Source: Corallococcus exiguus (GTDB taxonomy: Bacteria; Myxococcota; Myxococcia; Myxococcales; Myxococcaceae). From it: 57,113 bases of DNA. The stretch lies in NCBI RefSeq assembly GCF_012985225.1, contig NZ_JABEKZ010000024.1; one strand, given 5' to 3'. The position numbers and the translations under genes are program-made. Under the pieces are notes generated by a model. That model ran no database searches. It had not been told where the DNA came from and was given only the letters and a program-made list of their open reading frames with translations. Positions 4,988 to 24,993 of this stretch are shown here, in pieces (position 1 is the stretch's first letter; each line of letters starts with the position of its first letter).

Positions 4988-4991
4988 CGCC

Positions 4992-5974: not shown

Positions 5975-6402
5975 TGCGGGACATCGCTTCGGAACTAGCA
6001 ATGCTGCTAGAGGGAGCCGAGCTGGGCCTCGTGCGTCCTCCAGGTCCGGGCGCCAACCTCTTCACTTCACCAATGCCTGAGGAGGAGGGCGACGTGCCGG
6101 ACCGGGCCGTGGCTTTGGTGGTGTCTGGGGGCGCTAGGCCACAGCCCTACCTGGGGCTACGGCGTGCCGCATACTTTGTGACGAGTTGTCAGGTTCGCGT
6201 CCGCTCCGCGCGAGAGGATTTCGGTGGTGGGCAACTGCTCGCCAATGCTGTCTTCGCCGTCCTTGAGCAAGCGTGCGTAACGCCCGGTGTTAGTCGGTCC
6301 GAAGAGGGTGCTCCTGTCTATTTTGGGTCCGACGGATCGGATAGATATATTTGGAGTATGAATTTTACTGTTGGGAACAGATGGATGCCAGGAGTCCGCT
6401 AG
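5974..6402 (+). CDS. Putative neck / tail-completion protein
   Basis: ATG at 5974 overlaps the upstream TGA. The stretch LFTSPMPEE..DVPDRAVALVVSGG resembles minor neck proteins of siphoviruses. Confidence 0.4.
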   Translation: MRDIASELAMLLEGAELGLVRPPGPGANLFTSPMPEEEGDVPDRAVALVVSGGARPQPYLGLRRAAYFVTSCQVRVRSAREDFGGGQLLANAVFAVLEQACVTPGVSRSEEGAPVYFGSDGSDRYIWSMNFTVGNRWMPGVR

Positions 6403-6532
6403 TGTCATGAGAAGGGCTCCTGGCGCTTTGCGACAATCGCCACAAATGGTGCCCATGCGGCAGGATGAGTTTGTCGCAATGGGTTGCGGCTATTTCTTGT
6501 GCTTTGTGAGGCCTAGAGAGGGTCTTGGTTTT

Positions 6533-7330: not shown

Positions 7331-7341
7331 TTAAGTGGGGG

Positions 7342-7743
7342 ATGCCTGTTCGAGTCAAAGCCGATACGGTGAAGCTGGAGCGCCTGCGCCGCTCTCCCGT
7401 CGAGGTGCTGCGCGAGCTAGACGGCCCATGCCGGGACATCGCCCGCCTTGCCCTGGACTACTCCCTCTTCCTCGTTCCGGTGGGAGAGGGCCATCTGCGC
7501 GATAGCGCCTTCCTGAGTGGCCCGCTTCACAACCTGAGCCAGCGCCTCTCCACGACGTGGACGGCGGGCTACGTGCACCCGTCCGCAGGCCCCATTCACG
7601 AGGGCTGGCACTGGGGCGCGCAGCTCTTCAACCCGCCACCGCACTTCCTTCGCAAGTCGTTCCGCCGTGCCCGTGGCAGCGCTCGCCGCCGCGTGGCCGC
7701 CGTCCTGAAGGACTTCCTCGCGCAGCGCTTCCCATCCCAATGA
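7342..7743 (+). CDS. HK97 gp10-like tail/head-tail component
   Basis: VPVGEGHLRDSAF matches the gp10-family vPvdTG.LrrS motif. ATG at 7342 is in frame with the track ORF 7318. Confidence 0.5.
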   Translation: MPVRVKADTVKLERLRRSPVEVLRELDGPCRDIARLALDYSLFLVPVGEGHLRDSAFLSGPLHNLSQRLSTTWTAGYVHPSAGPIHEGWHWGAQLFNPPPHFLRKSFRRARGSARRRVAAVLKDFLAQRFPSQ

Positions 7744-7757
7744 CAGGAGCCGCCATC

Positions 7758-8183
7758 ATGCCGGAACCCCGAGAGGCCTTCTTCGACAAGCTCTACATCC
7801 GAGCGACGGACACCGCGCCCGTCGAGGCGGACGCGCTGGATGGCGTGCTGGAGGCGCCCGTCAACCGGGCCAAGGACACGGTGGATGCCAATTACTTCGG
7901 CGGAGACGGGTACAAGCGCACGAAGGGCACCTGGAAGTCCTTCTCCATTCCGCTGTCCGGCCACGTCTTCAAGGGCAGCGCGCCCCAGCAGGTGCTGCGT
8001 GACGCCTTCGAGAGCGACGCCACGGTGTTCTTCACCATCGTGGAGGACGAGACGGCCCCCATGGGCACGCAGGGCTACCGCTATCCGGTGAAGGTGACGT
8101 CCTACGAGGAGGGGCGCAGCTCCACGGACGTCGTCACCTTCTCCGCCACCCTCGCCGGCCAGGGCGCGCCCGTCGCGGTGTAG
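7758..8183 (+). CDS. Major tail (tube) protein
   Basis: 141 aa. A good SD (AGGAG) lies 8 nt upstream of the ATG at 7758. It sits between the gp10-like gene and the chaperone pair. A longer version starting at ATG 7740 is possible. Confidence 0.5.
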   Translation: MPEPREAFFDKLYIRATDTAPVEADALDGVLEAPVNRAKDTVDANYFGGDGYKRTKGTWKSFSIPLSGHVFKGSAPQQVLRDAFESDATVFFTIVEDETAPMGTQGYRYPVKVTSYEEGRSSTDVVTFSATLAGQGAPVAV

Positions 8184-8219
8184 CCGACTGCTTTCCCACT
8201 CCCCACCCGAGGCCTCACC

Positions 8220-8603
8220 ATGACCGCACCCACCACGCTCCGAAAGCCCCTCGGCACCCGCCGCAAGCTGCACAAGCGCGTCACTCTGGACGGCGCCGAC
8301 TACGACATCTGCCAACCGCCTCTTGGCGAGAAGCTTGAACTGCTCGCCGCCGCGAAGGCCGCCAAGGAACTGGGGCCGGACAGAAAGCCCGTCGATGAGT
8401 TCGCGGGAATGGCGATGATCGCCCGCATCGCCGTCCTCTGCCTCTACCACCCAGACACGGCCATCCGCGTCTTCGATGAGTCGGAGGTCGGCCAGGTGAA
8501 GCTCGAGCCCTGGCTGGAAGAGATTCAGGACGAACTCGCCCGGGCCTTCGCGGGACCGACGCTGGAGGAGGCGAAGGGAAACTCCGTAACCACCCCGAGC
8601 TGA
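8220..8603 (+). CDS. Tail assembly chaperone, gpG-like
   Basis: 127-aa ORF directly upstream of the tape measure. It ends just after a GGGAAAC heptamer. Confidence 0.6.
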   Translation: MTAPTTLRKPLGTRRKLHKRVTLDGADYDICQPPLGEKLELLAAAKAAKELGPDRKPVDEFAGMAMIARIAVLCLYHPDTAIRVFDESEVGQVKLEPWLEEIQDELARAFAGPTLEEAKGNSVTTPS

Positions 8604-8803
8604 GGGCGCTGCACGCGGTGGTGAAGCTGACGGGCCAGTCGCCCGAGGAAGTGCGCGGCTGGGCCTGGGAGGACGTCGTTTACCTCCTGGCCCACTGCGC
8701 CCTGGAGGCCGAGGAGGTGCGCAGCACGCGTGCCCCCGGCCCCGCCTCCCATGCCGGCCCGATGACGACGACAACGGTTTTCAGAAAGCGTCCCAAGAGG
8801 TGA
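8220..8803 (+). CDS. Predicted tail assembly chaperone G-T fusion, made by a programmed -1 ribosomal frameshift at 8576-8582
   Basis: The heptamer G GGA AAC sits in the 0 frame of the G ORF, 7 codons before its stop. A -1 slip continues in the frame of ORF 8618..8803, giving ...EEAKGKLRNHPELRALHAVVKLTGQ...RKRPKR, which ends 4 nt before the tape-measure ATG. Confidence 0.5.
8576..8582 (+). promoter_or_regulatory. Slippery heptamer GGGAAAC, a -1 programmed frameshift site
   Basis: It has the X XXY YYZ form and is phased to the gpG reading frame, in the conserved G/GT position ahead of the tape measure gene. Confidence 0.5.
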
Positions 8804-8806
8804 GGC

Positions 8807-11488: not shown

Positions 11489-11499
11489 GGAATCCCTCT

Positions 11500-12315
11500 A
11501 TGCCGGCTGCCCTGGCCCTTTCTGGAATCCCCTTGCCCGTTTCAGCGGAGCGGGGCCTGACGTACACGCCGACGCTACTGGGCGAGCACCGCCGCGCCTT
11601 CTCCGGGTGGCTGCGCAGCAGCGAGCGGCGCGAAGTCTTCACCCTGTCGGGCAACACCGGCCCCCTGACGCAGGAGGAAGCCCGCGCGTACCGGGGGCTC
11701 CTCAAGGGAGAGGGCCAGGTGTGGAGCTTCGAGGACGGGCTGCGTAGCCAGGCCTTACTCTCGCCGAGCGCCATGGTGGGCAACGTGTGGGCAGTGGAGG
11801 CCATGGGCCGCTTCGGTGGGTGCCTGCTCATGGAGGCGGGCGCCAGCGTCACCTTTCCCACGGGCCTCGGGGCGAAGTGGACGGTGGCCTACTGGTGGAA
11901 GCGCCAGGGGACGAAAGACAGGTGGCACCACCACGTCCACCGCGCAGGTCTGGGCCTCAGCGTCAACGGCGTGCCGGGCACCAGCCCTCACGCGGACGGC
12001 TTCCTCGTCGTGGACGGCGCGGGCCAACTGCCCCAGGGGGCGGTGACGCTCAGCAACGCGCCGGACGCTGGCGAGCTGCTGGTGGACGAGCTGGTGGTGC
12101 TGCCGTGGGTGGCGCCCGCGTCGTGGGTGGCTCCGTGGTTCGTCGCTGGGGAGCCCTTCGGCGCGCCGTACCCGTACCACCGGGCTTCGGGCGCCGCCCT
12201 CTACGAGCCGCTGCCCGTGCTGGGCCGGGTAGGGACGGGACGCGCGGTGCAGTGGTGGGAGGGCGGCGTCCTCGTCCTCGGGCAGGAGTTCGACTTCGAG
12301 TTGCAGGAGCGCTGA
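11500..12315 (+). CDS. Tail tip protein, distal-tail-like
   Basis: ATG at 11500 has a GAGGAA SD. The 271-aa gene directly follows the tape measure, the usual position of the distal tail protein. The 5' part of the track ORF (11179-11499) overlaps the tape measure and was discarded. Confidence 0.4.
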   Translation: MPAALALSGIPLPVSAERGLTYTPTLLGEHRRAFSGWLRSSERREVFTLSGNTGPLTQEEARAYRGLLKGEGQVWSFEDGLRSQALLSPSAMVGNVWAVEAMGRFGGCLLMEAGASVTFPTGLGAKWTVAYWWKRQGTKDRWHHHVHRAGLGLSVNGVPGTSPHADGFLVVDGAGQLPQGAVTLSNAPDAGELLVDELVVLPWVAPASWVAPWFVAGEPFGAPYPYHRASGAALYEPLPVLGRVGTGRAVQWWEGGVLVLGQEFDFELQER

Positions 12316-12318
12316 CGC

Positions 12319-14721
12319 ATGCGGCCCCTCTCTTCCTTCCAGGCGGCCCTGCTGGGCAGCCCTTCCGGCTACTCCACCCACCCGCGCGTCTGGGTACGCG
12401 ACGCGGCAGGGGCGTGGCGCGGCCTGCACACCCTCCTGGGCTTTGACTGGGTGCTGGGCGTGCGCATCAACGACAAGATGGACGCGCCCGTGGCCGAAGC
12501 GGAGGTGTCGCTGGTGCGCAGCGGCGCCGCTGGAGCACGCCTCTCCCTCTCGCCCCTGGTGGTGCAGTCCCTCGCCAACACCTCCGACGCGGGCACCTTC
12601 GCGCCGCTGCTGGTGGAGGGCGCCTATTTCCGCGTGGAGCTGGGCCTCGCGCCGCTCGCCACCGCGCCGAAAGAGGCGGACTACTTCGAGGTCTTCCGGG
12701 GCCGCATCGATGAGGTGGACGCCGGGCCCGACGAGCTGCGCGTCGTAGGCCGCGACTTGGGCGGGCTGCTGCAGGACACCTTCATCGAGGTGGAGCGCGA
12801 ATACGGCAATGACACGGTGGGCGTGGCCGTGCAGACCATCATCCAGGCGCTGTTGGACGACAACGGCCTCGCCCCCTTCGCACTCTTCACGCCTGTGGAC
12901 CCCATGTCCCAGCGCGGCCGGTACGTGCAGAAAGTGGAGCCGGTGCTGGATGCGGCGCGCACCCTAGCTCAGCGGATTGGCTGGGACTGCCGCATGCGCT
13001 GGCAGCCTGCCGCGAGCGCCTACGCGCTGACGCTCTCCGCGCCCAACCGCCTCCAGACGGAGGAAGACTGGAGCTATGGCCCGGACGAGTACGGCAACCT
13101 CGATGGTGTGACGCGGCAGTTGGCGGACATCCGCACGGACGTAGAGGTCGTCTACAGCGACAAGTTTGACTTGGATGCCTCGGGCACGCCGAATCGAAAG
13201 ACGGTGACGGCCAGCAACCCCACGGCTCGGGCCCAGGTGGGCCGCCGCTGGATGCAGGTAGCGGAGGAGTCCTCCAGCAACATCGACACGCAGGCCGAAG
13301 CCCAGCGACTCGCGGACGCGGCCATCGCGGACCTCTCCGTCTCGCCTCTCACTGTCACCATGGCGGTGGACCCTCACCCCGGCCTGGAGCTGGCGGACCT
13401 GGTGCTCGTGCTGCCGGACGGCGTGCGCCTCGACACGGCGCAGCGGCTCGCGGTGCAAGAGCTGGAGCACCAGTGCGCGACGGATGGCACCGCGCGCATG
13501 AAGCTGGTGCTGCGTGGCCAGCCCTCCACGTCGCTGCGTGAGTGGCTGGAGCGCGACAGCCGGCCGGGCATCGCCCCCAGCGCAACCTTCACGGGCCCGG
13601 CCGCGCCGCAGGAGGTGCGGGCGACGCCGACCGTAAATGGATGCTTGGTGACGTGGACCCCCGCGACTACCGGCCCGGCCTGGGACGAGTACGAGGTGCA
13701 CGCGTCTCGAACGCCGGGCTTCCAGCCCTCGGAGGCCACCTTCCAGGGGAGGGCGTCTGCGACGCGCTTCCTGCTTTCCGAGTTGCGTCCCGGCGCCACC
13801 TACTACTGCCGGGTGGTGGGCCGCGACGCCACGGGCAACCTGGGCGCGCCATCCGCCGAGGTGTCAGTCACCACGGCCTACGTGACACCCGCCACGTTGC
13901 AGCCCGCCGTGGCCTTCGGGGAGTCGCCACCCAACCCCGACTTCGAGGCGCACTCGTTCGAGGAGCTGCCGCCGGACGCCTGGACGATGGGCGCTGGACT
14001 CTGGGGTGCGCACGCTCAGGTGACGGCGGACGCGTACACGGGCGCGCGAGCTGTCCGGCTGGTGGCGAGCGGCACGCGGCTGGACTCCCAGGCGATGATT
14101 GCGCGGCCAGGTGACAGGTACAGCGTGGATGCCCTGGCAAGAGCGTCGCAGACAGGGACGGCATTCTCCGTCCAACTTGTCTGGTACGGCGGCGCCTTCA
14201 ACGTGTTGGGTACGGTGAGCACGACGAAGGTGCTTCCGACGAGCGACTGGGCGCCATTCACCGGCTTCCACAACGCGCCTGCCGGGACGCGCTACGTCCA
14301 GGTGCGCCTGCTGGCCCAGGCGACGCAAGGCGCGCCGTGGGTGTACGTCGATTCGGTGCGCTTGGACCGCATTGGCGGCCTCGTCGAGCCGTGGACGGCC
14401 ATTCGCACCGGGCAGATTAGCGACCTGGAGAATGGCTGGGTGGCGTGGGATGCCTCCAACTGGCCCCTGGGCTTCTACAAGAACAGCGACAACGAGGTGT
14501 CCGCACGCGGCCTCATCCGCCCTGGGACGGTGGGCTACGTGAACGCGTACCGCTTCCCGGTGGGCTACCGGGCCAGCTCCAACCGCATCCTGTCACTGCC
14601 GACGAGCCACGGCTTCGCCATGGGGCAGCTCAACGTGGATGGGGGCCTCCAGGTCTTCAGCATGCCCACGGGCGCGGCCTGGGTGAGCCTCGACGGAGTG
14701 CGATTCCGCGCGGAAGGGTGA
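12319..14721 (+). CDS. Tail fibre / host-specificity protein with a fibronectin type III domain
   Basis: 800 aa. An FN3-like segment (...VTWTPATTGPAWDEYEVHASRTPGF...LRPGATYYCRVVGRDATGNLGAPS) is followed by a C-terminal domain that looks like a carbohydrate-binding domain. Confidence 0.55.
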   Translation: MRPLSSFQAALLGSPSGYSTHPRVWVRDAAGAWRGLHTLLGFDWVLGVRINDKMDAPVAEAEVSLVRSGAAGARLSLSPLVVQSLANTSDAGTFAPLLVEGAYFRVELGLAPLATAPKEADYFEVFRGRIDEVDAGPDELRVVGRDLGGLLQDTFIEVEREYGNDTVGVAVQTIIQALLDDNGLAPFALFTPVDPMSQRGRYVQKVEPVLDAARTLAQRIGWDCRMRWQPAASAYALTLSAPNRLQTEEDWSYGPDEYGNLDGVTRQLADIRTDVEVVYSDKFDLDASGTPNRKTVTASNPTARAQVGRRWMQVAEESSSNIDTQAEAQRLADAAIADLSVSPLTVTMAVDPHPGLELADLVLVLPDGVRLDTAQRLAVQELEHQCATDGTARMKLVLRGQPSTSLREWLERDSRPGIAPSATFTGPAAPQEVRATPTVNGCLVTWTPATTGPAWDEYEVHASRTPGFQPSEATFQGRASATRFLLSELRPGATYYCRVVGRDATGNLGAPSAEVSVTTAYVTPATLQPAVAFGESPPNPDFEAHSFEELPPDAWTMGAGLWGAHAQVTADAYTGARAVRLVASGTRLDSQAMIARPGDRYSVDALARASQTGTAFSVQLVWYGGAFNVLGTVSTTKVLPTSDWAPFTGFHNAPAGTRYVQVRLLAQATQGAPWVYVDSVRLDRIGGLVEPWTAIRTGQISDLENGWVAWDASNWPLGFYKNSDNEVSARGLIRPGTVGYVNAYRFPVGYRASSNRILSLPTSHGFAMGQLNVDGGLQVFSMPTGAAWVSLDGVRFRAEG

Positions 14722-14761
14722 CGCACGCCGCACGTCAAAATCCGCCCCCATTCAGTGGGGG

Positions 14762-15328
14762 ATGATTCCCAATCCTGAACTCTTCTCCCGTCTCGATTTG
14801 AAGTCCCTCTATCCGCCCTTCCAGGCGGTGATGGGGGAAGTCATCGCCCGTTGCCGTGCACGCGGCGCGGACTACGTCGCCACGCGCGGCTACGCCACCT
14901 TCGCCGAGCAGCGCGTGCTGCACCTGCGCTACCTGAAGGGGGAGGGTGGCCGTGCGGCTCCGGAAGGACTCTCCGCGCACAACTACGGCCTGGCGAACGA
15001 CTTCTGCCGCGATGGCGATGTGGACCGGCCTGGGCTCCAGCCGCGCTGGGACGGGCCGGCCTACGCCATTCTCGGCGAGGAGACGCGCCGCGCGGGCTTG
15101 GCTTGGGGTGGCTCCTTCGGGGATGCGCCGCACTGTCAGTGGCCCGGCCTCGTGAGCGGCAGCCAGCTGGAGCCCGTGCGCGGCCTCTTCCTCTCGGAGC
15201 CAGCGGGCAGCACGGACGCGCAGCGGCTCGCCGCCGTCTGGCGCTTCCTCGACACGCTGCGCTCGATGCCGGAGTGGCGCGCCATGCACCCGGCGCTCGC
15301 CGCCTCGCTGGCGCGGCTCGGCTTCTGA
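14762..15328 (+). CDS. Endolysin, peptidase M15 (VanY / L-Ala-D-Glu peptidase-like)
   Basis: SAHNYGLANDF matches the SxHxxGxAxD motif, and a ...GDAPHCQW metal-ligand-like segment follows. It occupies the lysis-cassette position after the fibre gene. Confidence 0.55.
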   Translation: MIPNPELFSRLDLKSLYPPFQAVMGEVIARCRARGADYVATRGYATFAEQRVLHLRYLKGEGGRAAPEGLSAHNYGLANDFCRDGDVDRPGLQPRWDGPAYAILGEETRRAGLAWGGSFGDAPHCQWPGLVSGSQLEPVRGLFLSEPAGSTDAQRLAAVWRFLDTLRSMPEWRAMHPALAASLARLGF

Positions 15329-15369
15329 CTCCCGTGCGGCGCTTCCGCCGCACCTCACCCACGAAAGGC

Positions 15370-15879
15370 ATGCCCATGCTGCGACGTCTCGCCGTCCTCT
15401 TCCTTTGCCTCGTCTTCCCCTCCGTCGCCTTCGCGCAGGCGAACAGCTCGCCCGACCCGGGCAACGTGGAGTCCTTCGCGCGCCTCATCCTCGACGCGGT
15501 GACGGCCCGCAACTGGGCCCTCGTCGCGTCCCTGGCCGTCATCGCTCTCGTCTACGTGCTGCGCCGCTTCGTGGGCGCGTGGTGGCCGCTCTTGCGTACG
15601 GCGCGGGCGGGCGCGGTGCTGGCGCTGCTGCTGTCCGTCGCGGGTGCGGTGTCCAACGCGCTGCTGGCGGGCGAGTCCTTCACCGTGGCCCTGCTGCTGA
15701 AGGCGCTCACCATCGGCCTCGGGGCGGCGGGCGGCTTCACGGTGGTGAAGACGCTCCTCTTCGGTGACTCGGTGGCGGACGCGGCGCGCGAGGCGGGGGA
15801 GGTGGCGGCCGGGGAGATTGCCGGTAAGGCGGCGGCGGTGGCCGCGCTCGATGCACTCCAGCCGGGCAACAAGCGGTGA
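15370..15879 (+). CDS. Holin-like / lysis-associated membrane protein
   Basis: ATG at 15370 with a GAAAGG SD. An N-terminal signal-like segment is followed by two or three hydrophobic helices. It lies downstream of the endolysin. Confidence 0.35.
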   Translation: MPMLRRLAVLFLCLVFPSVAFAQANSSPDPGNVESFARLILDAVTARNWALVASLAVIALVYVLRRFVGAWWPLLRTARAGAVLALLLSVAGAVSNALLAGESFTVALLLKALTIGLGAAGGFTVVKTLLFGDSVADAAREAGEVAAGEIAGKAAAVAALDALQPGNKR

Positions 15880-16172
15880 GGGGCCTGGTACTGGCGCTGG
15901 CCCTGCTGGTGGCGGGGCGTGCGCGTGCGGAAGGCGAAGTGCTGGACGTGGCCCGCGCCACCGTGACGCTTCAGGACGGGCGCACGGTGGTGGTGGCCGA
16001 GGGATGCTGGTTGTCCACGGAGCGCTGCATCCTCACGGCCCGCGAGCTGCGCCGTCTCCAGGCGGAGAACGAGGTGCTCCGCCAGCAGCCGCGCCCAGTC
16101 CCTGTCCTGGCTGTGGTGCTGGCCGTGGTGCTCGGCGCGGGGGCGGGCTTCGCCCTCGCTCGGGTGCGGTGA
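15876..16172 (+). CDS. Spanin-like small membrane protein
   Basis: 98 aa with an N-terminal signal peptide, a coiled segment and a C-terminal transmembrane segment (PVPVLAVVLAVVLGAGAGFALA). The GTGA start overlaps the previous stop. Confidence 0.3.
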   Translation: MRGLVLALALLVAGRARAEGEVLDVARATVTLQDGRTVVVAEGCWLSTERCILTARELRRLQAENEVLRQQPRPVPVLAVVLAVVLGAGAGFALARVR

Positions 16173-16271
16173 TGACTCTTTAGGGTCCGTGATTGTGGAC
16201 TTTAAAAGTCAACTGCGCTCAAACTCCTAGGGAGGCGCCGCCGCGCCTTCTCTCCCGCCTCCCGAGGAGCC

Positions 16272-17441
16272 ATGCCCGACACGACAACTGACGACCTGGC
16301 GCGCACCGAAGCCTCCGCGCTCCGCAGGCAGCTTCCGCCGACGCCTGAGAGGCCGCTGCACCTATTCACCATCGACGGCATCCGCTACGAGGCCGTCCGC
16401 GAACTGGTGCTGATGGAGACGGGTGAGGTGCTGATGCTGGCCCATCGCTTCTCAGAGCGCGGCAACAAGCTGGCCGGCCATTGCTTCGTGCGGCGGCTGG
16501 CGAACCCCTCCACCTTCATGCAGCGCACGCGGCTGGGGGAGGAGATTCAGCTGGCCTTCCGTCTGCGCCACCCGGCCATCGCCACCGTGTTTCACCGCAA
16601 GGTGCACAAGGGCGCGCTGCACGCCGTCATGGAGTACGTGGACGGCCCCTCGCTGGAGACGCTGGTGAGTGCGGGTGTTGCGCGCGGCCGGCCCGTCTCC
16701 GAGGCCTTCGCCCTCTACGTCGGCGCGGAACTCGCGGAGGCCCTGCATCACGCACACACGCTGACGGACGCGGACGGCAAGGCGCTGGGCGTCATCCACC
16801 GCGACGTCAACCCCCGGCACGTCTACGTGGGGACGCAGGGCGAGGTGAAGCTGACGAACTTCGGCGCGGCGTACTCGCTGGTGGTGGGGCGCGAGGAGTC
16901 GCCCGCGAGCCTCGTGCGTGGCGACGTGGCGTATGCCTCGCCGGAGTACCTGACGCGGCAGCCGCTTTCGCCTCGCTCTGACGTCTTCAGCCTGGGCGTG
17001 CTGCTGGTGGAACTCTTCACCGGCAAGCACCTCTTCGACGTGGAGGACGTGCCGCGCCCGCTCAAAGGCATGGTCCGCCTCCAGCCCGAAATCCTCCCTT
17101 CGCTGCCGCTCACGCAGATGCAGGTGCTGCTGGACAGCTTTGGGCCGGAGGACGTCGAGGAGGCCGTGGCCTCACTCTCTCCGGACGTGAAGGCCATGCT
17201 GCATGTCGCGTTGCGCGCCAAACCCGAGGGGCGATTCGCCACGGCGGCGGACATGCGCGATGCGATGCGCGTTGCCCTGGCGAGGCGGCACCCTGGCTAC
17301 GGCCGGCAGGAAGCCGCAGCGGAATGGGCCCAGGTGCTGGCGGAGGGCAGCGTCCTTCGCGATGAGGTGGAGTTCGGCGAGGAGCGCTTCTTCCCCGAGG
17401 GGCTGGAGGCTCACGAGTTGGAGGGCTTGAAGCGGGAGTAG
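16272..17441 (+). CDS. Ser/Thr protein kinase-like protein, predicted pseudokinase
   Basis: Kinase fold with HRDVNPRH and APE-like SPEYL. The VAIK lysine is missing (FVRRL), DFG is replaced by NFG, the catalytic-loop Asn is His, and the Gly loop is degenerate. Confidence 0.6.
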   Translation: MPDTTTDDLARTEASALRRQLPPTPERPLHLFTIDGIRYEAVRELVLMETGEVLMLAHRFSERGNKLAGHCFVRRLANPSTFMQRTRLGEEIQLAFRLRHPAIATVFHRKVHKGALHAVMEYVDGPSLETLVSAGVARGRPVSEAFALYVGAELAEALHHAHTLTDADGKALGVIHRDVNPRHVYVGTQGEVKLTNFGAAYSLVVGREESPASLVRGDVAYASPEYLTRQPLSPRSDVFSLGVLLVELFTGKHLFDVEDVPRPLKGMVRLQPEILPSLPLTQMQVLLDSFGPEDVEEAVASLSPDVKAMLHVALRAKPEGRFATAADMRDAMRVALARRHPGYGRQEAAAEWAQVLAEGSVLRDEVEFGEERFFPEGLEAHELEGLKRE

Positions 17442-17445
17442 TGCT

Positions 17446-17805
17446 TCAGCGCGCCAGGGCCGAGGCGACGTGGAGGAGGGCCGCGAGGTCCTCCGCGTCC
17501 AGCTTGCGCGCGAGGTGGAGGAGGCGCCGCAGCTCCGGGGCGTCCTCTTCCTTGGGCTTGGGCTTCGTGGCCTTGCGCACGTCACCCGTGGGAGTCAGGC
17601 CCATCAGCTTCTCGGGAGACACCCGCAGCTCGCGGCAGAGGCGGTAGAGGGAGGGGACGCTGGGAAGCATCTTCCCGCGCTCCAGGCGGTTGTAGACGGG
17701 GTGCACCAGCCCAATGCGCTCCGCGACTTCAGCCTGCGTCAGGCCCAGGTGCTGACGTGCGGCGCGGGCCTCCGTGCCGATGGTGATGCCGATTTCCTCA
17801 TTCAT
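17446..17805 (-). CDS. XRE-family helix-turn-helix transcriptional regulator
   Basis: GLTQAEVAERIGLVHPVYNRLERGKMLPSVPSLYRLCRELRVSPEKLMG is a canonical Cro/CI-type HTH. Confidence 0.7.
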   Translation of the reverse strand: MNEEIGITIGTEARAARQHLGLTQAEVAERIGLVHPVYNRLERGKMLPSVPSLYRLCRELRVSPEKLMGLTPTGDVRKATKPKPKEEDAPELRRLLHLARKLDAEDLAALLHVASALAR

Positions 17806-17832
17806 GGCGGGCGCAGCGTAGCCGAGGGCGCG

Positions 17833-18180
17833 CTACCGGGACTCGGGAAGCAGCAGGAGCAACGCCCGCACCTGGGCCTCCTCCAGGTTGCGCACACGCA
17901 GGAGGAGTTGGTGCCGGGCCGGGAAGTCGTTGGAGACGGGCGTGTGGCCCATCAGCTCGTCTGGGGTGACGCCCAGCGCGCCGCACAGGCGTTGGATCGT
18001 GGAGACGCGGGGAAGCATGCGTCCTCGCTCCATGCGGCTGTAGACGGCATGCGCGAGGCCCACGCGCTGGGCCATTTCGGCCTGGGTGAGTCCCAGGCGG
18101 GTGCGTGCGGCCCGCGCGGCGTCACCAATGGTGCTGGCGAGTGGTTGGGAATGGGCCGGCTGCGAAGGGTGGCGCGCCAT
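17833..18180 (-). CDS. XRE-family HTH transcriptional regulator, paralogue of 17446..17805
   Basis: GLTQAEMAQRVGLAHAVYSRMERGRMLPRVSTIQRLCGALGVTPDELMG. The start at 18180 was chosen from the longer ORF; the true start is uncertain. Confidence 0.6.
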   Translation of the reverse strand: MARHPSQPAHSQPLASTIGDAARAARTRLGLTQAEMAQRVGLAHAVYSRMERGRMLPRVSTIQRLCGALGVTPDELMGHTPVSNDFPARHQLLLRVRNLEEAQVRALLLLLPESR

Positions 18181-18371
18181 GGCGGAATCGTAACCGAAGT
18201 CCTGCCAAGGGTGAATGCTAGAGGTTGGGTGACTACGGATGGACTCCATGAGTCCTTTTTGGTGAGCGCGTCCAGAGGGAGGGATTCCCGGGCTTCTCGC
18301 GCTTCTGGTAGGGTCCGCGCCCCGCTGGGAGGACGCATGGAAGAGGCCTGGGAGCCCAAAGGAAGGACGCC

Positions 18372-20219
18372 ATGATGCGGGGGCCACCTCCGGCCGTGCT
18401 GTCTCCTGGGGCCCAGGTGCTGGGCTACACGGTGGAGCGCCAGCTGGGGCAGGGCGGCTTCGGCACGGTGTACCTCGCGCGCTGCGAGGGCCAGCGCTTC
18501 GCCCTGAAGCTGCTGCACCTGCCGCGCGTAGGAGAGAGGGCGGAGCGCGAAGTTTCCATCCTCACCCGCCTTCACCATCCCAACGTGGTGCGGATTCTGG
18601 GCCATGGCTACTGGCCGGTGGCCCAGCCGCAATTCATCGTCATCGCTACGGAGTACGTGGAAGGGCGTCAGCTGGACGCGTGGGCCGACGCGGAGAACCC
18701 CACGGCGCGGCAGGTGACGCGCGTGCTGCTGGGCGTGGCACGGGCGCTCGCAGCTGCCCACGCGGATGGGGTGGTGCACCGGGACGTGAAGGAGGCCAAC
18801 GTCATGGTGCGAGCCTCGGACGGCCTGGCCAAGCTGGTGGACTTCGGCATCGGCGACTACGCGGGCGCGCGCGAGCTGACGGCGGACATCCTCCCTCCCG
18901 GGACGGTGGACTACCGCTCCCCGGAGGCGTGGCGCTTCCTGCGTGCTCACCTTGAGGCAAGGGACGCCCGTTACACAGCGGGGCCTGCGGACGACTTGTG
19001 GGCGCTGGGGCTTGTCTCTTACCGGCTGCTGACGGGGCGCTTCCCTTTTGACGGCGAGGACGGCGCCAGCTTGACGGAGGCGATTCTCTCCAGCGAACCC
19101 ACGCCGCCGCACGAGGAGAACGAGCGCGTGCCTCGGGCGCTGAGCGATGTGTGCCTGGGGCTATTGGAGAAGACCCCCGAGGCGCGCACGCCCAGCGCCC
19201 AGGTGCTCTGCGAGTCGCTGGAGCAGGCGCTGCGCGGTGCGGACGAGACGTGGGACGTGCCGCTCTGCGACGCCTACGACGAGGATTCCGCGACGACGGA
19301 GGGGGAGGACATCGACAGCTTCGAGCAGTGGCGGCACCAACCCCGACACCGCCCGCGTCGCGGCAAACGCATTCCCCAGAAACAGGTGCCAGCGGAGGAC
19401 GCGGCTGCTGCGGATGAGACACCGCCGCCCGCGACGACCGTGCGTGTGACGCCTGCGCAGCGTGGGGCCTTCCGCGCCTGGGCGGCGCTCGCGGTGGTGC
19501 TCGTCCTGTCAGGGGCGGCGTGGGGCCTCGGGATGTCGCGCGTCGCAGGGCCAGTCCCCACCCGTCAGGAAGTAGCGCCCTCTGGCAAGTCGTCTCAAGC
19601 TGACCGCGCCGCAGCTCCCACCGGGCCGGAGGCCACCGCTGCGGCCGTCGCTCTCCCCGCGACGCTCCAGGAGGTTTCAGCCACCGTGACGACGCAGCCG
19701 AAAGAGACGCAGCCCCTTCAGTTCCCCTCGAAGCCCGCGAAGAAGGGCATGAGCGTCATGGCCCGTGCTGTCGGCACGGCGGCGGCATGCACGGCGCTCG
19801 CGTGCCCAGGGCCGCAAGTGCGTCCGGCACCTCCTCCGGAGCCGTGCCCAAAGGGTGCTGTGAAGGCCATGGCGAAGCTGGGCATCGACATTGGAGACAG
19901 GCACGAAGCCGTTTTCACCCGTGACCGCCCGCAATTCATTTCTGTTCGGGAAGGCCCTGCCCAGGTGTTCTTGTACGGCGATTGGGAGGAAATGCCGCAC
20001 GGGACAGTTCTGTCTGGTCGGCTAATCGTGCGAGACCGCGTTTACGGGCGACTCACCTCGGCGACTACGCCAAAGGGCGAGAGTTTTCCTGTCTGCCTGG
20101 AGGTCTACGACGTGAAAGACGGGGAACGAGGAATGGCACGCGAGCCCGGAAACGACTCACCTTCCAATGGCCGTATCTTCACGAGCGAATACGTGAGGGC
20201 GGTGAGCGAGTTTGAGTAA
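18372..20219 (+). CDS. Ser/Thr protein kinase, catalytically competent, with a transmembrane segment and a C-terminal extracytoplasmic domain
   Basis: GQGGFGTVY, FALK, HRDVKEANV, DFG and SPE motifs are all present. A Pro/acidic linker leads to a transmembrane helix (AWAALAVVLVLSGAAWGLGM) and a ~200-aa C-terminal domain. Confidence 0.8.
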   Translation: MMRGPPPAVLSPGAQVLGYTVERQLGQGGFGTVYLARCEGQRFALKLLHLPRVGERAEREVSILTRLHHPNVVRILGHGYWPVAQPQFIVIATEYVEGRQLDAWADAENPTARQVTRVLLGVARALAAAHADGVVHRDVKEANVMVRASDGLAKLVDFGIGDYAGARELTADILPPGTVDYRSPEAWRFLRAHLEARDARYTAGPADDLWALGLVSYRLLTGRFPFDGEDGASLTEAILSSEPTPPHEENERVPRALSDVCLGLLEKTPEARTPSAQVLCESLEQALRGADETWDVPLCDAYDEDSATTEGEDIDSFEQWRHQPRHRPRRGKRIPQKQVPAEDAAAADETPPPATTVRVTPAQRGAFRAWAALAVVLVLSGAAWGLGMSRVAGPVPTRQEVAPSGKSSQADRAAAPTGPEATAAAVALPATLQEVSATVTTQPKETQPLQFPSKPAKKGMSVMARAVGTAAACTALACPGPQVRPAPPPEPCPKGAVKAMAKLGIDIGDRHEAVFTRDRPQFISVREGPAQVFLYGDWEEMPHGTVLSGRLIVRDRVYGRLTSATTPKGESFPVCLEVYDVKDGERGMAREPGNDSPSNGRIFTSEYVRAVSEFE

Positions 20220-20245
20220 CAGCACCACCTGGGAGTAATCGCCGA

Positions 20246-21160
20246 GTGTCATCTTCTTCTTTCGTCGTGCTCCTGGGCCTGCTGTTCGTGGCCGAAACGG
20301 CCGTCGCTCAGTCAGAGGGTTCAGCGTCGGTGCCGGGCGCACGACGCATCGAATTGTCGCCGGACGATGTTCAAGTCGCCCCCGAGATCGCGATCAGCTC
20401 TGGACTCTCGACGGCTCTCTTCTTCGATTCCGACCTGATGCGCGACAGTGTCGAGTTGGAGGGGCGAGATCGCTTTGCACTGGTGGATGTGGGGCAAGCC
20501 ACAATCCGACTGGTGCCTTCGTCGCGTGTAGCTCCAGGCGAGCGGTTTCGTCTGGTCGTGCGATTCAGGGATGGCGCAGCCCCCTTGAGTGCATTCTTCC
20601 TTTTGCGGATCCATCCGGCAAAGGCCGAGTCTCTCATTGAGGTCTATCGCGGAAAGCGGACGATTGAGACGTACCAGCAGGAAGCCCGCGAGGCGCATGC
20701 GGAATTGCTGCGCTGCCAAAATGAGAACGCAAGACTGATGGCCGAGCACGATGCTCCGGGAGGGCTGGCGGGCCTGATCTCCACCGGAGGAATGGACGAG
20801 CGTGGTGTGGCCGGGCAAGTCGTGACCCTTGAGTTCTCCCAAGTCTCTGGGAGTGACCTGACGGCCTCTTACATCACGAGCTATCGCTCCACTACGGGCG
20901 TAGCGGTGGACATCAAGTTGGACGTGAAGGCCGGGGCTCAGCCATGGCTCGCGAAGGGCGCAACGCTCAAAGGCAAGGCTGGCGTGGAGTTGAAGGTGAT
21001 CCGCGTATGGCAGCGAATGCCAATTCCAGGAGGAAACGTCGGTCGGGTTGTTGTGGAAGCCGAGGCCTCACCAGAAACAACCCGAGGGCCCTTCTCACTC
21101 AAGCTCTGGGAGGAAGATGGGTCGCGTACTGTCGTGTTTGGCAACGTGATGTTCCCCTAA
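20246..21160 (+). CDS. Secreted protein resembling the Myxococcus kinase-associated paralogous family (TIGR02268/DUF2381-like)
   Basis: Signal peptide (MSSSSFVVLLGLLFVAETAVA). It is ~300 aa and lies directly downstream of a Ser/Thr kinase, as members of that family usually do. The family assignment is made from memory. Confidence 0.4.
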   Translation: MSSSSFVVLLGLLFVAETAVAQSEGSASVPGARRIELSPDDVQVAPEIAISSGLSTALFFDSDLMRDSVELEGRDRFALVDVGQATIRLVPSSRVAPGERFRLVVRFRDGAAPLSAFFLLRIHPAKAESLIEVYRGKRTIETYQQEAREAHAELLRCQNENARLMAEHDAPGGLAGLISTGGMDERGVAGQVVTLEFSQVSGSDLTASYITSYRSTTGVAVDIKLDVKAGAQPWLAKGATLKGKAGVELKVIRVWQRMPIPGGNVGRVVVEAEASPETTRGPFSLKLWEEDGSRTVVFGNVMFP

Positions 21161-21303
21161 GGGAGCCCGTTGCTGAGTCCTCGCCGTTGCCTGCTGCGCA
21201 GTAACGCAGCGGTAACGCAGTCGAGTGGACTGGTCTGGACGCGCCTGGACGCAGCAGGGTACGGTATCCACAGGGCAGGTGGGGCGTAACCCCTCGGAAG
21301 TAT

Positions 21304-21402
21304 TGGCGGTAGGGCACGGGAATCGAACTCGCCAGGGACTGCTCTCGCAGCCCCTCACCGGTTTTGAAGACCGGGCCGGCCACCAGGTCCGGAGGCCCTA
21401 CC
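21304..21402 (-). tRNA. selC: tRNA-Sec (selC), anticodon UCA
   Basis: Hand fold of the minus strand gives an 8-bp acceptor stem (GGTAGGGC/GCCCTACC), G73, an encoded CCA, a 7-nt anticodon loop cTTCAaa, a long variable arm (8-bp stem plus GAGA loop) and a T arm (G-TTCGATT-C). This is the bacterial 8/5 Sec geometry. Confidence 0.55.
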
Positions 21403-21444
21403 GCTTCCGATTACCGCCGCTCCGCCCCAGTCCGTCAACCACGG

Positions 21445-22413
21445 TCACGGCTTGCGCGCGGACACCACGGCGTACTCATCGCAGTTGAACAGCGCGGGCC
21501 ACTGGAGCTGCTCCGGTGTCATCCGCATCGCCTTGTGCACGTCCGCGCGCACCTGGTGCAGGGACGTGCTCCCTGGATTGCGCTCCAGCTGCGTCATGCC
21601 CCGCAGCGCCACCAGCGCCGTGTTCACCGCCGGGTACACATCCTCCGCGATGGACTCCACCTTCACGTCCTGGAACCCCGCCCGCCGCAGCTCCTCCCGG
21701 TAGCGCTCCGTCGACCAGACGTTCTCCTCCGGGAAGGCAATCAGCCCCCGCCAGTAGCGGTAGCGCAGCCGCGCTCGGAGTCCTGCTCCAGCCTCACGGT
21801 CCGTCTTCTGCGCCATGTCCGCCATCACCAGCCGGCCTCCCGGCTTCAGCACCCGGAAGGCCTCGCGCAGGAAGTCCTGCCGCATCCGGAAGTGCATCGC
21901 GGACTCCAGCGCGAACACCCCGTCGAACGCTCCCTCCGGTCCCGGCAGCGCCGTCGCGCTCCCCACCTCCAGCCGGACCACGCCCTCCAGCCCCGTCAGC
22001 TTCACGCGCTCCCGGCCCACCTTCACCTGGTTCGGCGTGATGTTCACCCCGACGATGCTCGCGGGCTTGAACTCCTCCGCCCACAGCAGGTCCTGGTCCG
22101 CGTACCCGAAGCCGCAGTCCAAGACGGCATCCCCGGGCCCCAGCTTCGCGGTCCTCGCCAGGAGGCGCGCCATCTCCGCCTGGGCGGACCGGAACAGCTC
22201 CCCCACGCGCTCCACGTTGGAGTCGTCCACCTTCTCCACGTGCTTCCAGTAGCCCAGGTTGATCCAGAAGGGCTCCCGGCCCGTCGTCACCCGGATGTCG
22301 CTCGGCGCCGGCATCCCCGCCACCCAGGCTCCTGTCTCGTTCGTATAGAAGCGCTCCGGGTCCGCCAGGAACGCACTCTTCAGCCGCGTCGCGACCTGCC
22401 TCACGTTGACCAT
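21445..22413 (-). CDS. Class I SAM-dependent methyltransferase
   Basis: Motif I is VLDCGFGYADQDL, and ...LKPGGRLVMAD is post-II-like. Confidence 0.7.
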   Translation of the reverse strand: MVNVRQVATRLKSAFLADPERFYTNETGAWVAGMPAPSDIRVTTGREPFWINLGYWKHVEKVDDSNVERVGELFRSAQAEMARLLARTAKLGPGDAVLDCGFGYADQDLLWAEEFKPASIVGVNITPNQVKVGRERVKLTGLEGVVRLEVGSATALPGPEGAFDGVFALESAMHFRMRQDFLREAFRVLKPGGRLVMADMAQKTDREAGAGLRARLRYRYWRGLIAFPEENVWSTERYREELRRAGFQDVKVESIAEDVYPAVNTALVALRGMTQLERNPGSTSLHQVRADVHKAMRMTPEQLQWPALFNCDEYAVVSARKP

Positions 22414-22593
22414 CGCCAGCCTCCTGGGCCGTCCACCCGATGGCCGGAACCCTAGCCCGTGTCACGGCGATTCCAGGCTTGGCCTGCATGACGGTTTTCA
22501 CTGGTGAATGAAGCGGGGCCGCTCGCCCGGTGTCCCAGGGGGCGCCTTGTCCGGCGTGTCGTCCGGGCTCCATGATGGAAGTCCTTCTCCGCC

Positions 22594-24993
22594 ATGCGCC
22601 GAACCTTCCGTCCCGTCCCCCTGGCACCGGGCTTCCCGCCGGCGCTCGTCCTGCTGCTGTGTCTGTGTCTGTCCTTGATCGCCCGGGCAGCACCGGCGGC
22701 GACGAACGCCAGGCCGTTCCGCGTCGGGCCTCCCGCCGCGTGGGTGAGGCCGCTTCCCATTCCTCCAGACCCCGGCCCGACTCCCGAGGGCGAGGAGGAG
22801 ACCAGCGTCTCCCGGCTGCTGATCGAGGAACAGGTGCGCGTGTCAGGCCCATCGCGCGTGCACTACCTGCACTCGGCCCAGAAGGTCCTCTCTCCGCGGG
22901 GCATCGACCGCGTCACGGACATCCAGTTCCGCTTCGATCCGACGTACCAGAAGCTCACCGTCCACGGCATCTGGCGCATCCGCGACGGCCGCCGCGAGGA
23001 CGTCTTCCAGCCCGCCGAGGCCCGGGTCATCCAGCAGGAGACCGAGCTCCAGAACCGGCTCTACAACGGCAACCTCTCCGTGGTGCCCTTCCTCCACGAC
23101 GTGCGGGTGGGCGACACCGTGGAGGTCGCGTACTCCTTCGAAGGCGCCAACCCCGTCTTTGGCGGCCGCTTCTCCGACGTCGTCGGCGTGGGCCATTCCT
23201 ATCCCGTGGTCCACTTCGCCTACCGGCTGCTGTGGCCGGAAGGGCGGGGTCGCACGCTCTTCATCCGGGACTTCGCCGCGCCGGGCCTGTCGCGCTCGGA
23301 GTCGATGCTGAACGGCGAGCGTGAAATCATCCTGGAGCGCCGCCACGTGCCCGCGGTCCGCCACGAGGACAACGTCCCCGGCTGGCAGCCCGTCTACCCG
23401 TGGATCCAGTTCAGCGAATACAAGGACTGGAACGACGTCGCGCGCTGGGCCTCCACGCTGTTCCAGGTGCCCGCCCGCTCGAAGTCGCTGGAGCAGGAGG
23501 TCCGCCGGCTGTCGAAGGAGCCCACCCCGGAGGCTCGCTTCCTCGCCGCGCTTCGCTTCGTCCAGGACGAGGTGCGCTACCTGGGCATCGAGATGGGCCC
23601 CAACTCCCACCAGCCCCATCCGCCCGACGAGGTCCTCCAGCGCCGCTTCGGCGACTGCAAGGACAAGTCGCTCCTCTTGGTATCGCTCCTCAAGGGGCTG
23701 GGCATCGACGCGCAGCCGGCGCTCGTGAGCACGGACCTCACGCAGCTGCTGGACGGCTTGCGTCCCACCTCCACCGCGTTCAACCACGTCATCGTCCACG
23801 CCACCGTGGCCGGCCGTGATCTGTGGGTGGACCCCACGGCGACGCTGGAGCGCGGCGGGCTGGACAGCTACGAGCCGCCCTCCTACGGCCGGGCCCTCCT
23901 CGTCGCCCCCGCCACCACGGCGCTCTCCGTCATCCCCGCGCCCACGCTGACGGAGCCCTCCATCTTCGTGGACGAGACCTACGTCGCGATGGGCCGCGAC
24001 GGGGCCGCGACACTCGACGTCGTCACCACGCGCACGGGGGCGGCCGCCAACTCCATGCGCCGCGCGCTCGCGGGCACGTCCCTGTCCGAGGTGTCCCGCC
24101 TCTACTTCAACTACTACGCGAAGACGGACGCGGACATCTCCATCGCGAAGCCCATGTCGGTGGACGACGACACCGTGACGAACGTGCTCGTCACGCAAGA
24201 GCACTACCGCATCGAGGACTTCTGGACCTCGGACGGTCGCCGGGAGTTCCGCGCGCATGGCCTGCGCCAGCACCTCGCCGTGCCGAACTACTCCCACCGC
24301 GCCTTCCCGCTGGAGGTGGATCACCCCGTCTTCGCCCGCCACCGCATCACGCTGAAGGCCGGCGAGCTGCCCCCTGTCAAAACGGAGTACGAGGTCGTGG
24401 ACGGTCCGGCCTTCCGCTTCGTGGCCGACACCCGCGCCGAAGGCAAGACGCTGCTGCTCGACTACAGCTACCGCAGCACCGCGGATTCGGTCCCGCCCGA
24501 GCGCATCGCCGAGTACGTGAAGGCCGTGCGCGCCACCGAGGCCCAGCGCGGCTACGCCATCCAACTCAGGAGCCGGGCCGCCCGCCACCAGGCCTCGTCC
24601 GTTCCGTCCGGCGAGGCGGGTGCCATCCTCCTGGGCGTCATCGCGACGTGCCTCGTGCTGTGGTTCGTCATCGCGCAGGGCGGCCCGGTGGCGCTCTGGC
24701 GAAAGGGCCGCGCCTGGGGCCGGCGCCGCGCCTTCGCACGCAAGTTCGACGCGGACCACCGGGGCGACAGCGCCGGGTCCGCCATCCCCATCACCAGCCC
24801 TCAGGAGCTGCTCTCCACGCTGGGCCGGCTGCGCTGCGCCTGCGGAGCCACCAGCGAGGCCCCACGGGAGTCGCTCCGCCACGAGGCCGTCGTCCTGGGC
24901 GACCGCCACCTCACCCTGGTGCAGTGGCAGTGCCCCACCTGCGCCCGCGCCCGCCGCGCCTACTTCGAGGACAAGGGCTCGCGCGCCGCCTGA
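22594..24993 (+). CDS. DUF3857 / transglutaminase-like cysteine protease family protein with a C-terminal transmembrane segment and a Cys4 zinc-ribbon-like tail
   Basis: Signal peptide. The transglutaminase-core-like Cys is in ...QRRFGDCKDKSLLLVSLLKGLGID. A transmembrane helix (AILLGVIATCLVLWFVIAQ) is followed by CAC...C.TC. Confidence 0.6.
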   Translation: MRRTFRPVPLAPGFPPALVLLLCLCLSLIARAAPAATNARPFRVGPPAAWVRPLPIPPDPGPTPEGEEETSVSRLLIEEQVRVSGPSRVHYLHSAQKVLSPRGIDRVTDIQFRFDPTYQKLTVHGIWRIRDGRREDVFQPAEARVIQQETELQNRLYNGNLSVVPFLHDVRVGDTVEVAYSFEGANPVFGGRFSDVVGVGHSYPVVHFAYRLLWPEGRGRTLFIRDFAAPGLSRSESMLNGEREIILERRHVPAVRHEDNVPGWQPVYPWIQFSEYKDWNDVARWASTLFQVPARSKSLEQEVRRLSKEPTPEARFLAALRFVQDEVRYLGIEMGPNSHQPHPPDEVLQRRFGDCKDKSLLLVSLLKGLGIDAQPALVSTDLTQLLDGLRPTSTAFNHVIVHATVAGRDLWVDPTATLERGGLDSYEPPSYGRALLVAPATTALSVIPAPTLTEPSIFVDETYVAMGRDGAATLDVVTTRTGAAANSMRRALAGTSLSEVSRLYFNYYAKTDADISIAKPMSVDDDTVTNVLVTQEHYRIEDFWTSDGRREFRAHGLRQHLAVPNYSHRAFPLEVDHPVFARHRITLKAGELPPVKTEYEVVDGPAFRFVADTRAEGKTLLLDYSYRSTADSVPPERIAEYVKAVRATEAQRGYAIQLRSRAARHQASSVPSGEAGAILLGVIATCLVLWFVIAQGGPVALWRKGRAWGRRRAFARKFDADHRGDSAGSAIPITSPQELLSTLGRLRCACGATSEAPRESLRHEAVVLGDRHLTLVQWQCPTCARARRAYFEDKGSRAA

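Follow-up and report, generated by a model that had tools for sequence, protein, structure and literature searches.

The 57,113-nt stretch of Corallococcus exiguus DNA analysed here (the window) carries a single gene for a selenocysteine tRNA, selC, on its minus strand at 21304..21402, and this gene very probably serves as attachment site for a temperate siphovirus-type prophage, which would occupy it in this genome. A phage of ~41 kb appears to have inserted into selC while rebuilding it. The initial annotation had placed a selenocysteine tRNA with a UCA anticodon on the minus strand within 21290..21420, and both the tRNA finder and the covariance model run on the region agree with that call. 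Particularly, ARAGORN returns a tRNA-SeC with anticodon tca as the sole tRNA of the window, and the Rfam tRNA-Sec model (RF01852) matches 21308..21402 with a score of 70.5 bits (E 1.9e-12, Infernal), the gathering score being 47, in an untruncated alignment that spans the full model. RF01852 is, in addition, the top-scoring member of the tRNA clan at this position. The fold has a z-score of -3.08, with 0 of 200 shuffles folding equally well, and the match is not due to chance. The locus is a genuine and conserved selC of the bacterial type, and its small departures from the E. coli model are lineage-specific. The coordinates of the gene and of the features surrounding it are collected in Table 1.

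Table 1. Positions of the tRNA-Sec gene, its neighbours and the prophage genes in the window.
Feature	Coordinates	Strand	Description or basis
Prophage late-gene module	1..15328	+	Pfam and PHROGs
Portal	<1..1168	+	N-terminus cut by contig end
Prohead protease	2618..3304	+	
HK97-type capsid	3301..4524	+	
Head-tail adaptors	4992..5974	+	
Tail terminator	5863..6402	+	
Major tail protein	7557..8183	+	
Tail chaperone	8220..8603	+	
Tape measure	8807..11488	+	
Tail proteins	11503..14721	+	
M15 endolysin	14762..15328	+	
Cargo block, five genes between endolysin and tRNA	16272..21160	mixed	Pfam
Ser/Thr kinase	16272..17441	+	
Xre-type HTH	17446..17805	-	
Xre-type HTH	17836..18177	-	
Ser/Thr kinase	18372..20219	+	
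DUF2381 protein	20246..21160	+	
GCGTTAC x2, 11-bp spacing	21201..21218	-	+86/+97 from tRNA 3' end; putative integrase arm-binding sites, tRNA-proximal arm
tRNA-Sec (selC)	21304..21402	-	99 nt, UCA, 8/5 form, G73, encoded CCA; ARAGORN and RF01852
att core (putative)	21304..21369	-	tRNA nt 34-99, anticodon loop CTTCAAA through CCA, 66 nt
Promoter-like element	21410..21438	-	TTGACG 21438..21433, 17-nt spacer, GGTAAT 21415..21410, 7 nt to mature 5' end
Class-I SAM methyltransferase	21445..22413	-	Methyltransf_11 (E 4e-18), Methyltransf_25, Methyltransf_31 (Pfam); directly upstream of selC

The prophage and its relatives in other genomes

The 3' end of the tRNA faces lower coordinates, which is the phage side, and window positions 1..21303 form a siphovirus-type segment, in which the late-gene module, from portal to endolysin, is complete. 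The contig ends inside the portal gene, and the far end of the prophage lies beyond it. The same layout is found in a sister strain (GCA_013155175.1), which is 97.0% identical to the window and collinear with it over 21 kb across the tRNA. Within the cargo block, a kinase matches phrog_2361 (E 1e-49), and the PD-T4-6 kinase models of PADLOC match the cargo kinases as well, this being a generic kinase-domain match. An exact-protein look-up of the capsid, the adaptor and four integrases (P0001, P0003, P0285 and P0280) returned no record.

In order to survey the locus in relatives, the last 19 nt of selC were searched against one genome per species, which yielded 31 loci, nearly all of them from Myxococcus, Corallococcus and Pyxidicoccus. 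Copies of this 19-mer additional to the one in the tRNA gene are present in six genomes of the scan, five of which also carry the full gene; in M. xanthus AM003 the fragment alone is seen, with no full gene shown. The carriers of displaced fragments are C. coralloides KYC2213, C. exercitus, C. interemptor, C. llansteffanensis, P. fallax, two M. xanthus genomes and C. silvisoli. At all seven fragment-bearing loci of the scan, every displaced fragment begins at CTTCAAAACC, within the anticodon loop, and extends as far as the CCA, thus corresponding to tRNA nt 34-99. The fragments of M. xanthus CP017174 and C. silvisoli likewise begin at CTTCAAAACC. The same 19-mer, used to look for a free attP in a viral collection, gave 0 matches.

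A complete genome, that of C. coralloides KYC2213 (NZ_CP172866.1), shows the arrangement in full: there the full gene occupies 5764581-5764679 and two fragments end at 5805714 and 5846421. Read from these positions, the sequence points to two tandem elements of ~41 kb each at the tRNA-Sec gene. The first 3.3 kb of element 1 are collinear with the window from 21303 to 17948 at 80-86% identity, a stretch that includes the DUF2381 gene and a kinase. The last 5.6 kb of the first block encode a DNA polymerase A, an N6/N4 DNA methylase and a tyrosine integrase of 376 aa, whose gene ends about 95 nt from the fragment. This integrase matches phrog_1 with an E value of 1.3e-9 and has a weak Pfam match in its N-terminal part (E 0.002). 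The comparison between the KYC2213 element and the window concerns the two ends of the element.

Integrase homologues accompany the displaced fragment in other genomes too. In M. xanthus CP017174, one lies about 160 nt from a fragment that covers nt 34-99 at 94% identity, and in C. silvisoli another lies about 190 nt from a fragment that covers nt 34-97. M. xanthus AM003 encodes a further homologue on the same 4741-bp contig as its fragment. In C. exiguus itself, an integrase (NNB91954.1) that is 94% identical to that of KYC2213 is encoded on a 4.8-kb contig, which may belong to the same assembly as the window. Separately, the phage DNA methylase was used as a probe and led to a C. exiguus match (L035) that proved to be a mosaic relative, with early genes 90% identical. 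Its integrase is not the same one and lies next to a fragment of another tRNA (anticodon loop CTTTCAA); the match was set aside as uninformative on the tRNA-Sec site.

The short repeats next to the tRNA add to this picture. The GCGTTAC pair that flanks the window tRNA is found at the same positions, +86/+97, in C. interemptor and Myxococcus sp. Y35, and the AM003 element has GCGTTAC twice at -81/-70 before its fragment, on the integrase-proximal arm. A variant repeat, CGTTAGCG, is present twice on both arms in KYC2213, and CGTTAGCG x2 also occurs on the integrase arm of M. xanthus CP017174 and of C. silvisoli. The paired pattern is that expected of arm-type integrase binding sites, which we putatively assign to these repeats. 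The heptamer GCGTTAC occurs five times in the 57-kb window.

Probable integration at the tRNA gene

The findings described above are consistent with a model in which a phage attP carrying a copy of tRNA nt 34-99 would have recombined with selC via a tyrosine integrase, with the crossover in or near the anticodon loop. After recombination, the prophage (window 1..21303 and onwards past the contig end) would follow the tRNA, and the 3' two-thirds of selC would be phage-supplied. The original 3' fragment, thus displaced, would be expected beside the integrase at the far prophage end, so that a far junction may be predicted for the window's own genome. The initial annotation had suggested that the tRNA locus could be a target of mobile elements, and this proposal is borne out by the prophage that abuts the tRNA 3' end and by the relatives with displaced 3' fragments beside integrases.

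Two further observations bear on the donor of the 3' part and on the variability of the site. Firstly, in KYC2213 (outer copy), P. fallax and C. silvisoli, the variable arm or the acceptor strand of the displaced fragment is not identical to that of the resident gene, as is expected if the 3' part of the resident gene came from the element. Secondly, nearly every genome has its own sequence 3' of the tRNA; a flank that changes almost genome by genome denotes a polymorphic site, that is, a hotspot. A strictly empty attB was not found among the loci examined. In C. carmarthensis, the tRNA is separated by 3.5 kb from the native flank of KYC2213, which contains a GT2 gene.

The alternative to be weighed against integration at selC is that the prophage is not integrated at the tRNA-Sec gene at all: the cargo would be chromosomal DNA or a decayed island, the late genes would have their att elsewhere, and the adjacency would be coincidental. 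The far junction is unseen in the window's genome, several related prophages exist in C. exiguus genomes, and kinase/HTH/DUF2381 modules are found again elsewhere and in other orientations (L020 and the M. xanthus CP017174 locus), at an amino-acid identity of about 55%. In Corallococcus sp. CA054B, moreover, the kinase orthologue and an integrase have adjacent accession numbers, indicating that about 35 kb of phage genes can be missing where the cargo and the integrase are present. We read this arrangement as a deletion derivative, although it leaves room for a separate arrival of cargo and late genes. Against a coincidental adjacency, however, the shared arm-type repeats tie the window flank to the element family from the first base past the CCA, and the same flank is homologous to the start of the repeat-bounded 41-kb element of KYC2213. 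In addition, neither an att-like sequence or junction nor an element-end motif was found between the tRNA, the cargo and the late genes, and the window holds no second copy of the tRNA 3' part, intact or degenerate. The order of late genes, cargo and att is, furthermore, the usual lambda-like layout. On this evidence, coincidental adjacency is improbable.

The proposed integration of the prophage at selC has precedents of several kinds. E. coli selC is an integration site as well, and in K-12 the pseudogene remnant yicT lies just downstream of it. The islands at E. coli selC and phage phiR73 use P4-type integrases and a short core at the extreme 3' end of the gene, whereas the att core proposed here measures 66 nt and starts in the anticodon loop. 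Among phages of myxobacteria, Mx8 is, like the window prophage, a temperate phage with a tRNA gene as attB; it targets tRNA-Asp. The window capsid is at most 35% identical to that of any GenBank phage, the best matches being to Marinobacter and Burkholderia phages (32-35%), and this indicates that the prophage is not a close relative of Mx8 in its head genes. No Myxococcus phage is among the capsid matches.

The proposed mechanism corresponds to the integration into tRNA genes of the anticodon-loop class, as described in Islander (PMC4383910), a resource with 2083 A-type islands, 3760 islands with 3' fragments and 125 tandems. As in its A-type islands, which have an anticodon-loop attP, the element family seen in the relatives combines a tyrosine integrase with a 3' tRNA copy that would regenerate the gene; as in Islander islands, a displaced 3' tDNA fragment is found at the far end in these relatives, and tandem arrays occur at one tRNA gene (PMC4383910). 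Unlike in the A-type description, the target is tRNA-Sec in Myxococcaceae and the integrase is divergent. Mx8 integration and IntP are the subject of the entry listed as reference 24 of PMC4383910. The element at selC is new but conventional. Both a selC gene and a tRNA-targeting prophage are of well-known kinds.

Structure, conservation and expected function of the tRNA

The features by which the initial annotation had described the gene (99 nt in length, an 8-bp acceptor stem, G73, an encoded CCA and UCA in a 7-nt loop) are all read in the sequence, and so is the bacterial 8/5 form, with eight acceptor pairs and five T-stem pairs, the fourth of which is mismatched. The acceptor stem (GGUAGGGC/GCCCUACC) is Watson-Crick throughout and is followed by a 2-nt linker. 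The D arm, CCGG(A)CC-UGGU-GGCCGG, forms six pairs closed by the UGGU loop if A15 is bulged, the other option being an A.G mismatch and a 5-nt loop. The Rfam alignment flags non-standard pairs in this stem, whose columns are all invariant. The anticodon stem has 5 bp, with C28 and U46 unpaired, and carries the loop CUUCAAA (tRNA nt 34-40), which is invariant across 16 orthologues. The long variable arm was rightly described as such, GAGA loop included; its stem, however, consists of nine pairs (an A-U followed by 8 bp, one G.U being among the nine) and not of eight. The T stem is formed by G.U, C-G, G-C, A.C and G-C around the loop UUCGAUU, which lies within GUUCGAUUC, and its fourth pair (A74.C84) is an invariant mismatch. 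C8-G88, G71.U87 and C72-G86 make up the acceptor/T junction, and G96, equivalent to G73, precedes the encoded CCA. Neither the A.C mismatch of the T stem nor the bulge of the D stem had appeared in the earlier description.

The comparison with E. coli selC (b3658) was made by taking its sequence by coordinates and aligning it with the window tRNA; blastn of the latter against E. coli genomes gives no match, the overall identity being too low. Both tRNAs have the 8-bp acceptor, the 5-pair T stem, G73, the encoded CCA, the junction of C-G (the last acceptor pair), G.U and C-G, the CUUCAAA loop, the long variable arm and the GUUCGA T loop. The window tRNA has 99 nt and E. coli selC 95 nt; of the four additional residues, one is bulged from the D stem and three belong to the variable arm. 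At the fourth position of the T stem, the window tRNA has A.C and E. coli G-C, and E. coli has a sixth pair in the anticodon stem, G.U, that is lacking here.

Conservation in relatives supports the proposed fold. ARAGORN calls a 99-nt tRNA-SeC in 23 of the 31 loci, never more than one per genome. In an alignment of 16 orthologues, 10 of them distinct, 97% of the cells are paired on the cloverleaf, compared with about 45% (38-49%) in a control in which the 3' partners were slid by one to three columns. Double-sided changes are seen at eight pairs, comprising four of the five in the anticodon stem and four of the nine in the variable arm. No variation is seen in the acceptor, D and T arms, and the fold there is thus neither supported nor contradicted by covariation; the last 19 nt of the orthologues were, in addition, fixed by the search pattern.

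The region just upstream of the gene is conserved as well. The motif TTGAC(G)-N17-nnTAAT lies at equal distance from the tRNA in 24 of 24 loci from three genera, regardless of the upstream gene, and the similarity between loci ends just 5' of TTGAC. We infer that TTGACG-N17-GGTAAT is a sigma-70-type promoter of selC's own. A consensus scan for promoters and terminators made no call at selC, and the element is visible only when loci are compared; the scanner missed it because the -10 hexamer has no A at position 2.

As previously stated in the initial annotation, selC lies downstream of a methyltransferase gene. It begins 42 nt after the stop codon of that gene, both being on the minus strand. 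The methyltransferase gene is missing from this place in several species, where other genes precede the tRNA, and no link between it and selenium is evident. In the Myxococcus and Pyxidicoccus loci, the translations of the upstream genes look, by eye, like a TetR-type regulator and an epimerase-like protein, and these are not sel genes.

Transcribed from its own conserved promoter, selC would give a tRNA-Sec of the canonical bacterial 8/5 form. Homology with E. coli predicts that this tRNA is serylated by SerRS (long variable arm, G73) and that the resulting Ser-tRNA-Sec is converted by SelA. In E. coli, the acceptor/T junction pairs C7-G66, G49.U65 and C50-G64 keep Sec-tRNA off EF-Tu. The C-G/G.U/C-G junction of the window tRNA, by the same homology, would have it brought to UGA by SelB and not by EF-Tu. 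Both the aminoacylation and the decoding of UGA are thus ascribed to this tRNA by analogy, and the presence of the gene probably points to the use of selenocysteine by Corallococcus.

It might be argued, in this regard, that selC is a relic, kept or regenerated only because the elements carry a copy of it, and that selenoprotein synthesis has been lost. Neither selA, selB or selD nor any other gene related to selenium is found within the 57-kb window, and none adjoins the tRNA in any of the 36 related loci. In the searchable open literature, what is found on selenocysteine machinery in myxobacteria is a genome note listing tRNA-SeC in Archangium, with no statement on Corallococcus. Two in-frame TGA candidates in the window, the sole ones flanked by coding signal on both sides, were rejected, as they are stop codons between adjacent phage genes of the same frame and not selenoprotein genes. 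Against a relic, however, the chromosomal 5' third of the gene and the promoter, which are absent from the elements, are invariant or conserved across three genera. Moreover, the anticodon stem brings together a chromosomal strand and an element-derived strand, and its changes are fully compensated, which denotes selection on the assembled tRNA. We consider the relic reading very unlikely.

U73 and 8/4 or 9/3 folds are the marks of alternative tRNA-Sec-like classes. A tRNA of that sort (an allo-tRNA or selC*-type species), charged with cysteine or another amino acid and reading UGA without selenium, could be invoked for the departures from the E. coli model (the bulged A of the D stem, the A.C of the T stem and the 5-bp anticodon stem), but it is hardly credible for a gene that has the serine-type discriminator G73 rather than U73, an 8/5 fold and not 8/4 or 9/3, the acceptor/T junction of E. 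coli selC, an RF01852 score well over threshold as the top tRNA-clan family at the site, and one copy per genome.

Implications for Myxococcaceae

On a much broader reading, the Myxococcaceae tRNA-Sec gene would form a major hypervariable hotspot, with several unrelated families of elements stacked in tandem. As every element supplies a copy of tRNA nt 34-99, these would repeatedly overwrite the variable arm and the 3' acceptor strand of the sole tRNA-Sec of the host, and would thereby spread tRNA-Sec alleles across species and genera. Through its recurrent cargo (kinase/HTH/DUF2381 modules, Imm11 and CBASS), the locus would then drive phage defence or kin discrimination in these social bacteria. 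We regard this extension as doubtful.

The tRNA-Sec itself is of value for annotation only, and it belongs in any gene list of the organism. The locus is, in addition, a clear landmark from which the limits of prophages and islands can be set when Myxococcaceae assemblies are fragmented. The genetic tools available for myxobacteria are few, and they rely mainly on the Mx8 and Mx9 integrases. Together, the 66-nt core, the arm repeats and the integrase family would define a tRNA-Sec-specific integration system in these bacteria. Nothing in this is conceptually new. The locus also indicates that an essential decoding RNA can be supplied in part by a phage.

Variable surroundings of the tRNA-Sec gene

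The conserved unit formed by the TTGACG-N17-nnTAAT promoter-like element and the tRNA-Sec gene stays constant in place despite changing upstream genes. The upstream flank of the tRNA (window 21445..24993) is variable too between genomes: the methyltransferase and the DUF3857/transglutaminase gene are absent from this side in C. terminator CA054A, C. praedator and one MAG, and Myxococcus and Pyxidicoccus carry, as judged by eye from the translations, a TetR-type-like regulator and an epimerase-like gene instead.

The same site harbors other elements in related genomes. In M. xanthus CP017174 (locus L033), the tRNA-Sec gene holds a second stacked island, formed by the CBASS-like block. The elements of two further related loci, L020 and L021, finish with an Imm11 gene and share a conserved end (...CGGATCGGGGTGGCGGGG); no integrase is found at their Imm11 end, and they are another element family using this site.

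Features of the window and of related loci
Feature	Location	Strand	Remarks
ORF inside phage head and tail operon	window 1219..2487	-	opposite to operon
ORF inside phage head and tail operon	window 6533..7330	-	opposite to operon
Gene preceding tape measure	window 8220..8603	+	overlapped by second high-GC3 frame, reaching TGA at 8801 (span 8220..8803)
800-aa phage tail protein	window 12319..14721		
Kinase / two HTH / kinase / DUF2381 module	window 16272..21160		cargo beside tRNA-Sec
Valyl-tRNA synthetase	window 34524..38003	+	
758-aa protein	window 39579..41855	+	MVP_shoulder (E 9e-45); Vault repeats 1-4
LysM protein	window 45675..47393	+	T6SS VgrG3-like C-terminal (peptidoglycan-degrading) domain (E 3e-53)
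CD-NTase C-terminal domain and Cap15 (CBASS-like pair), then IS fragments	L033:7670-9246		directly past displaced tRNA-Sec fragment
Imm11 immunity-protein gene	L020:7022-7534; L021:2927-3769		at element end, just ahead of displaced fragment

Cargo and unusual genes of the prophage segment

The kinase/HTH/DUF2381 module is seen again as tRNA-Sec island cargo in other genomes (L020:1-3800 and L033:1-2900), at about 55% amino-acid identity and in opposite orientation relative to the att copy of the tRNA 3' part. For both kinases of the module in the window, PD-T4-6 defence-kinase models give hits (E values 2e-55 and 4e-36) that may reflect just a generic kinase domain.

Within the head and tail operon, the two ORFs on the opposite strand lie in stretches of markedly low GC content (0.53-0.57 vs about 0.69). 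The first belongs to no family in Pfam, PHROG or PADLOC, and the second, apart from weak coiled-coil matches, to none in these same collections; both are possible moron genes. Ahead of the tape measure gene, the overlapping frames are the usual frameshift arrangement of a tail-assembly chaperone.

Chromosomal genes and doubtful species labels

Elsewhere in the window, the 758-aa protein strongly matches domains of the eukaryotic major vault protein, and its gene lies in an ordinary chromosomal context, adjoining a quinolinate phosphoribosyltransferase gene. The valyl-tRNA synthetase has a C-terminal tail of roughly 110 residues that is hit by low-complexity models of the histone H1-like HC2 and extensin-like kinds.

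Among the compared records, BNCN01000007.1 has 'Comamonas sp. KCTC 72670' as its title; it includes a tRNA-Sec of the Myxococcaceae type, and its GroEL region shares 83% identity with the window. A 'Comamonas sp. JC664' protein (P0046) appears among myxobacterial integrase homologues. Both records look mislabelled.

Probable integrase exchange and coexisting prophages

In a prophage of C. exiguus GCA_013155195.1 (L035:12050-13450), the early genes share 90% identity with their counterparts in the KYC2213 element, one of two tandem blocks at tRNA-Sec in C. coralloides. Its integrase is a different one, and the tRNA fragment beside that integrase comes from another tRNA (anticodon loop CTTTCAA; T arm GGGTTCGAATCCC). 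This combination indicates that integrase modules are swapped and that the phage is thereby retargeted. In addition, one genome can have three or four copies of the phage tail protein that are at least 90% identical, as in Corallococcus sp. AB032C and AS-1-12, and thus several related prophages coexist per genome, which is probably the reason why assemblies break inside the prophage of the window.
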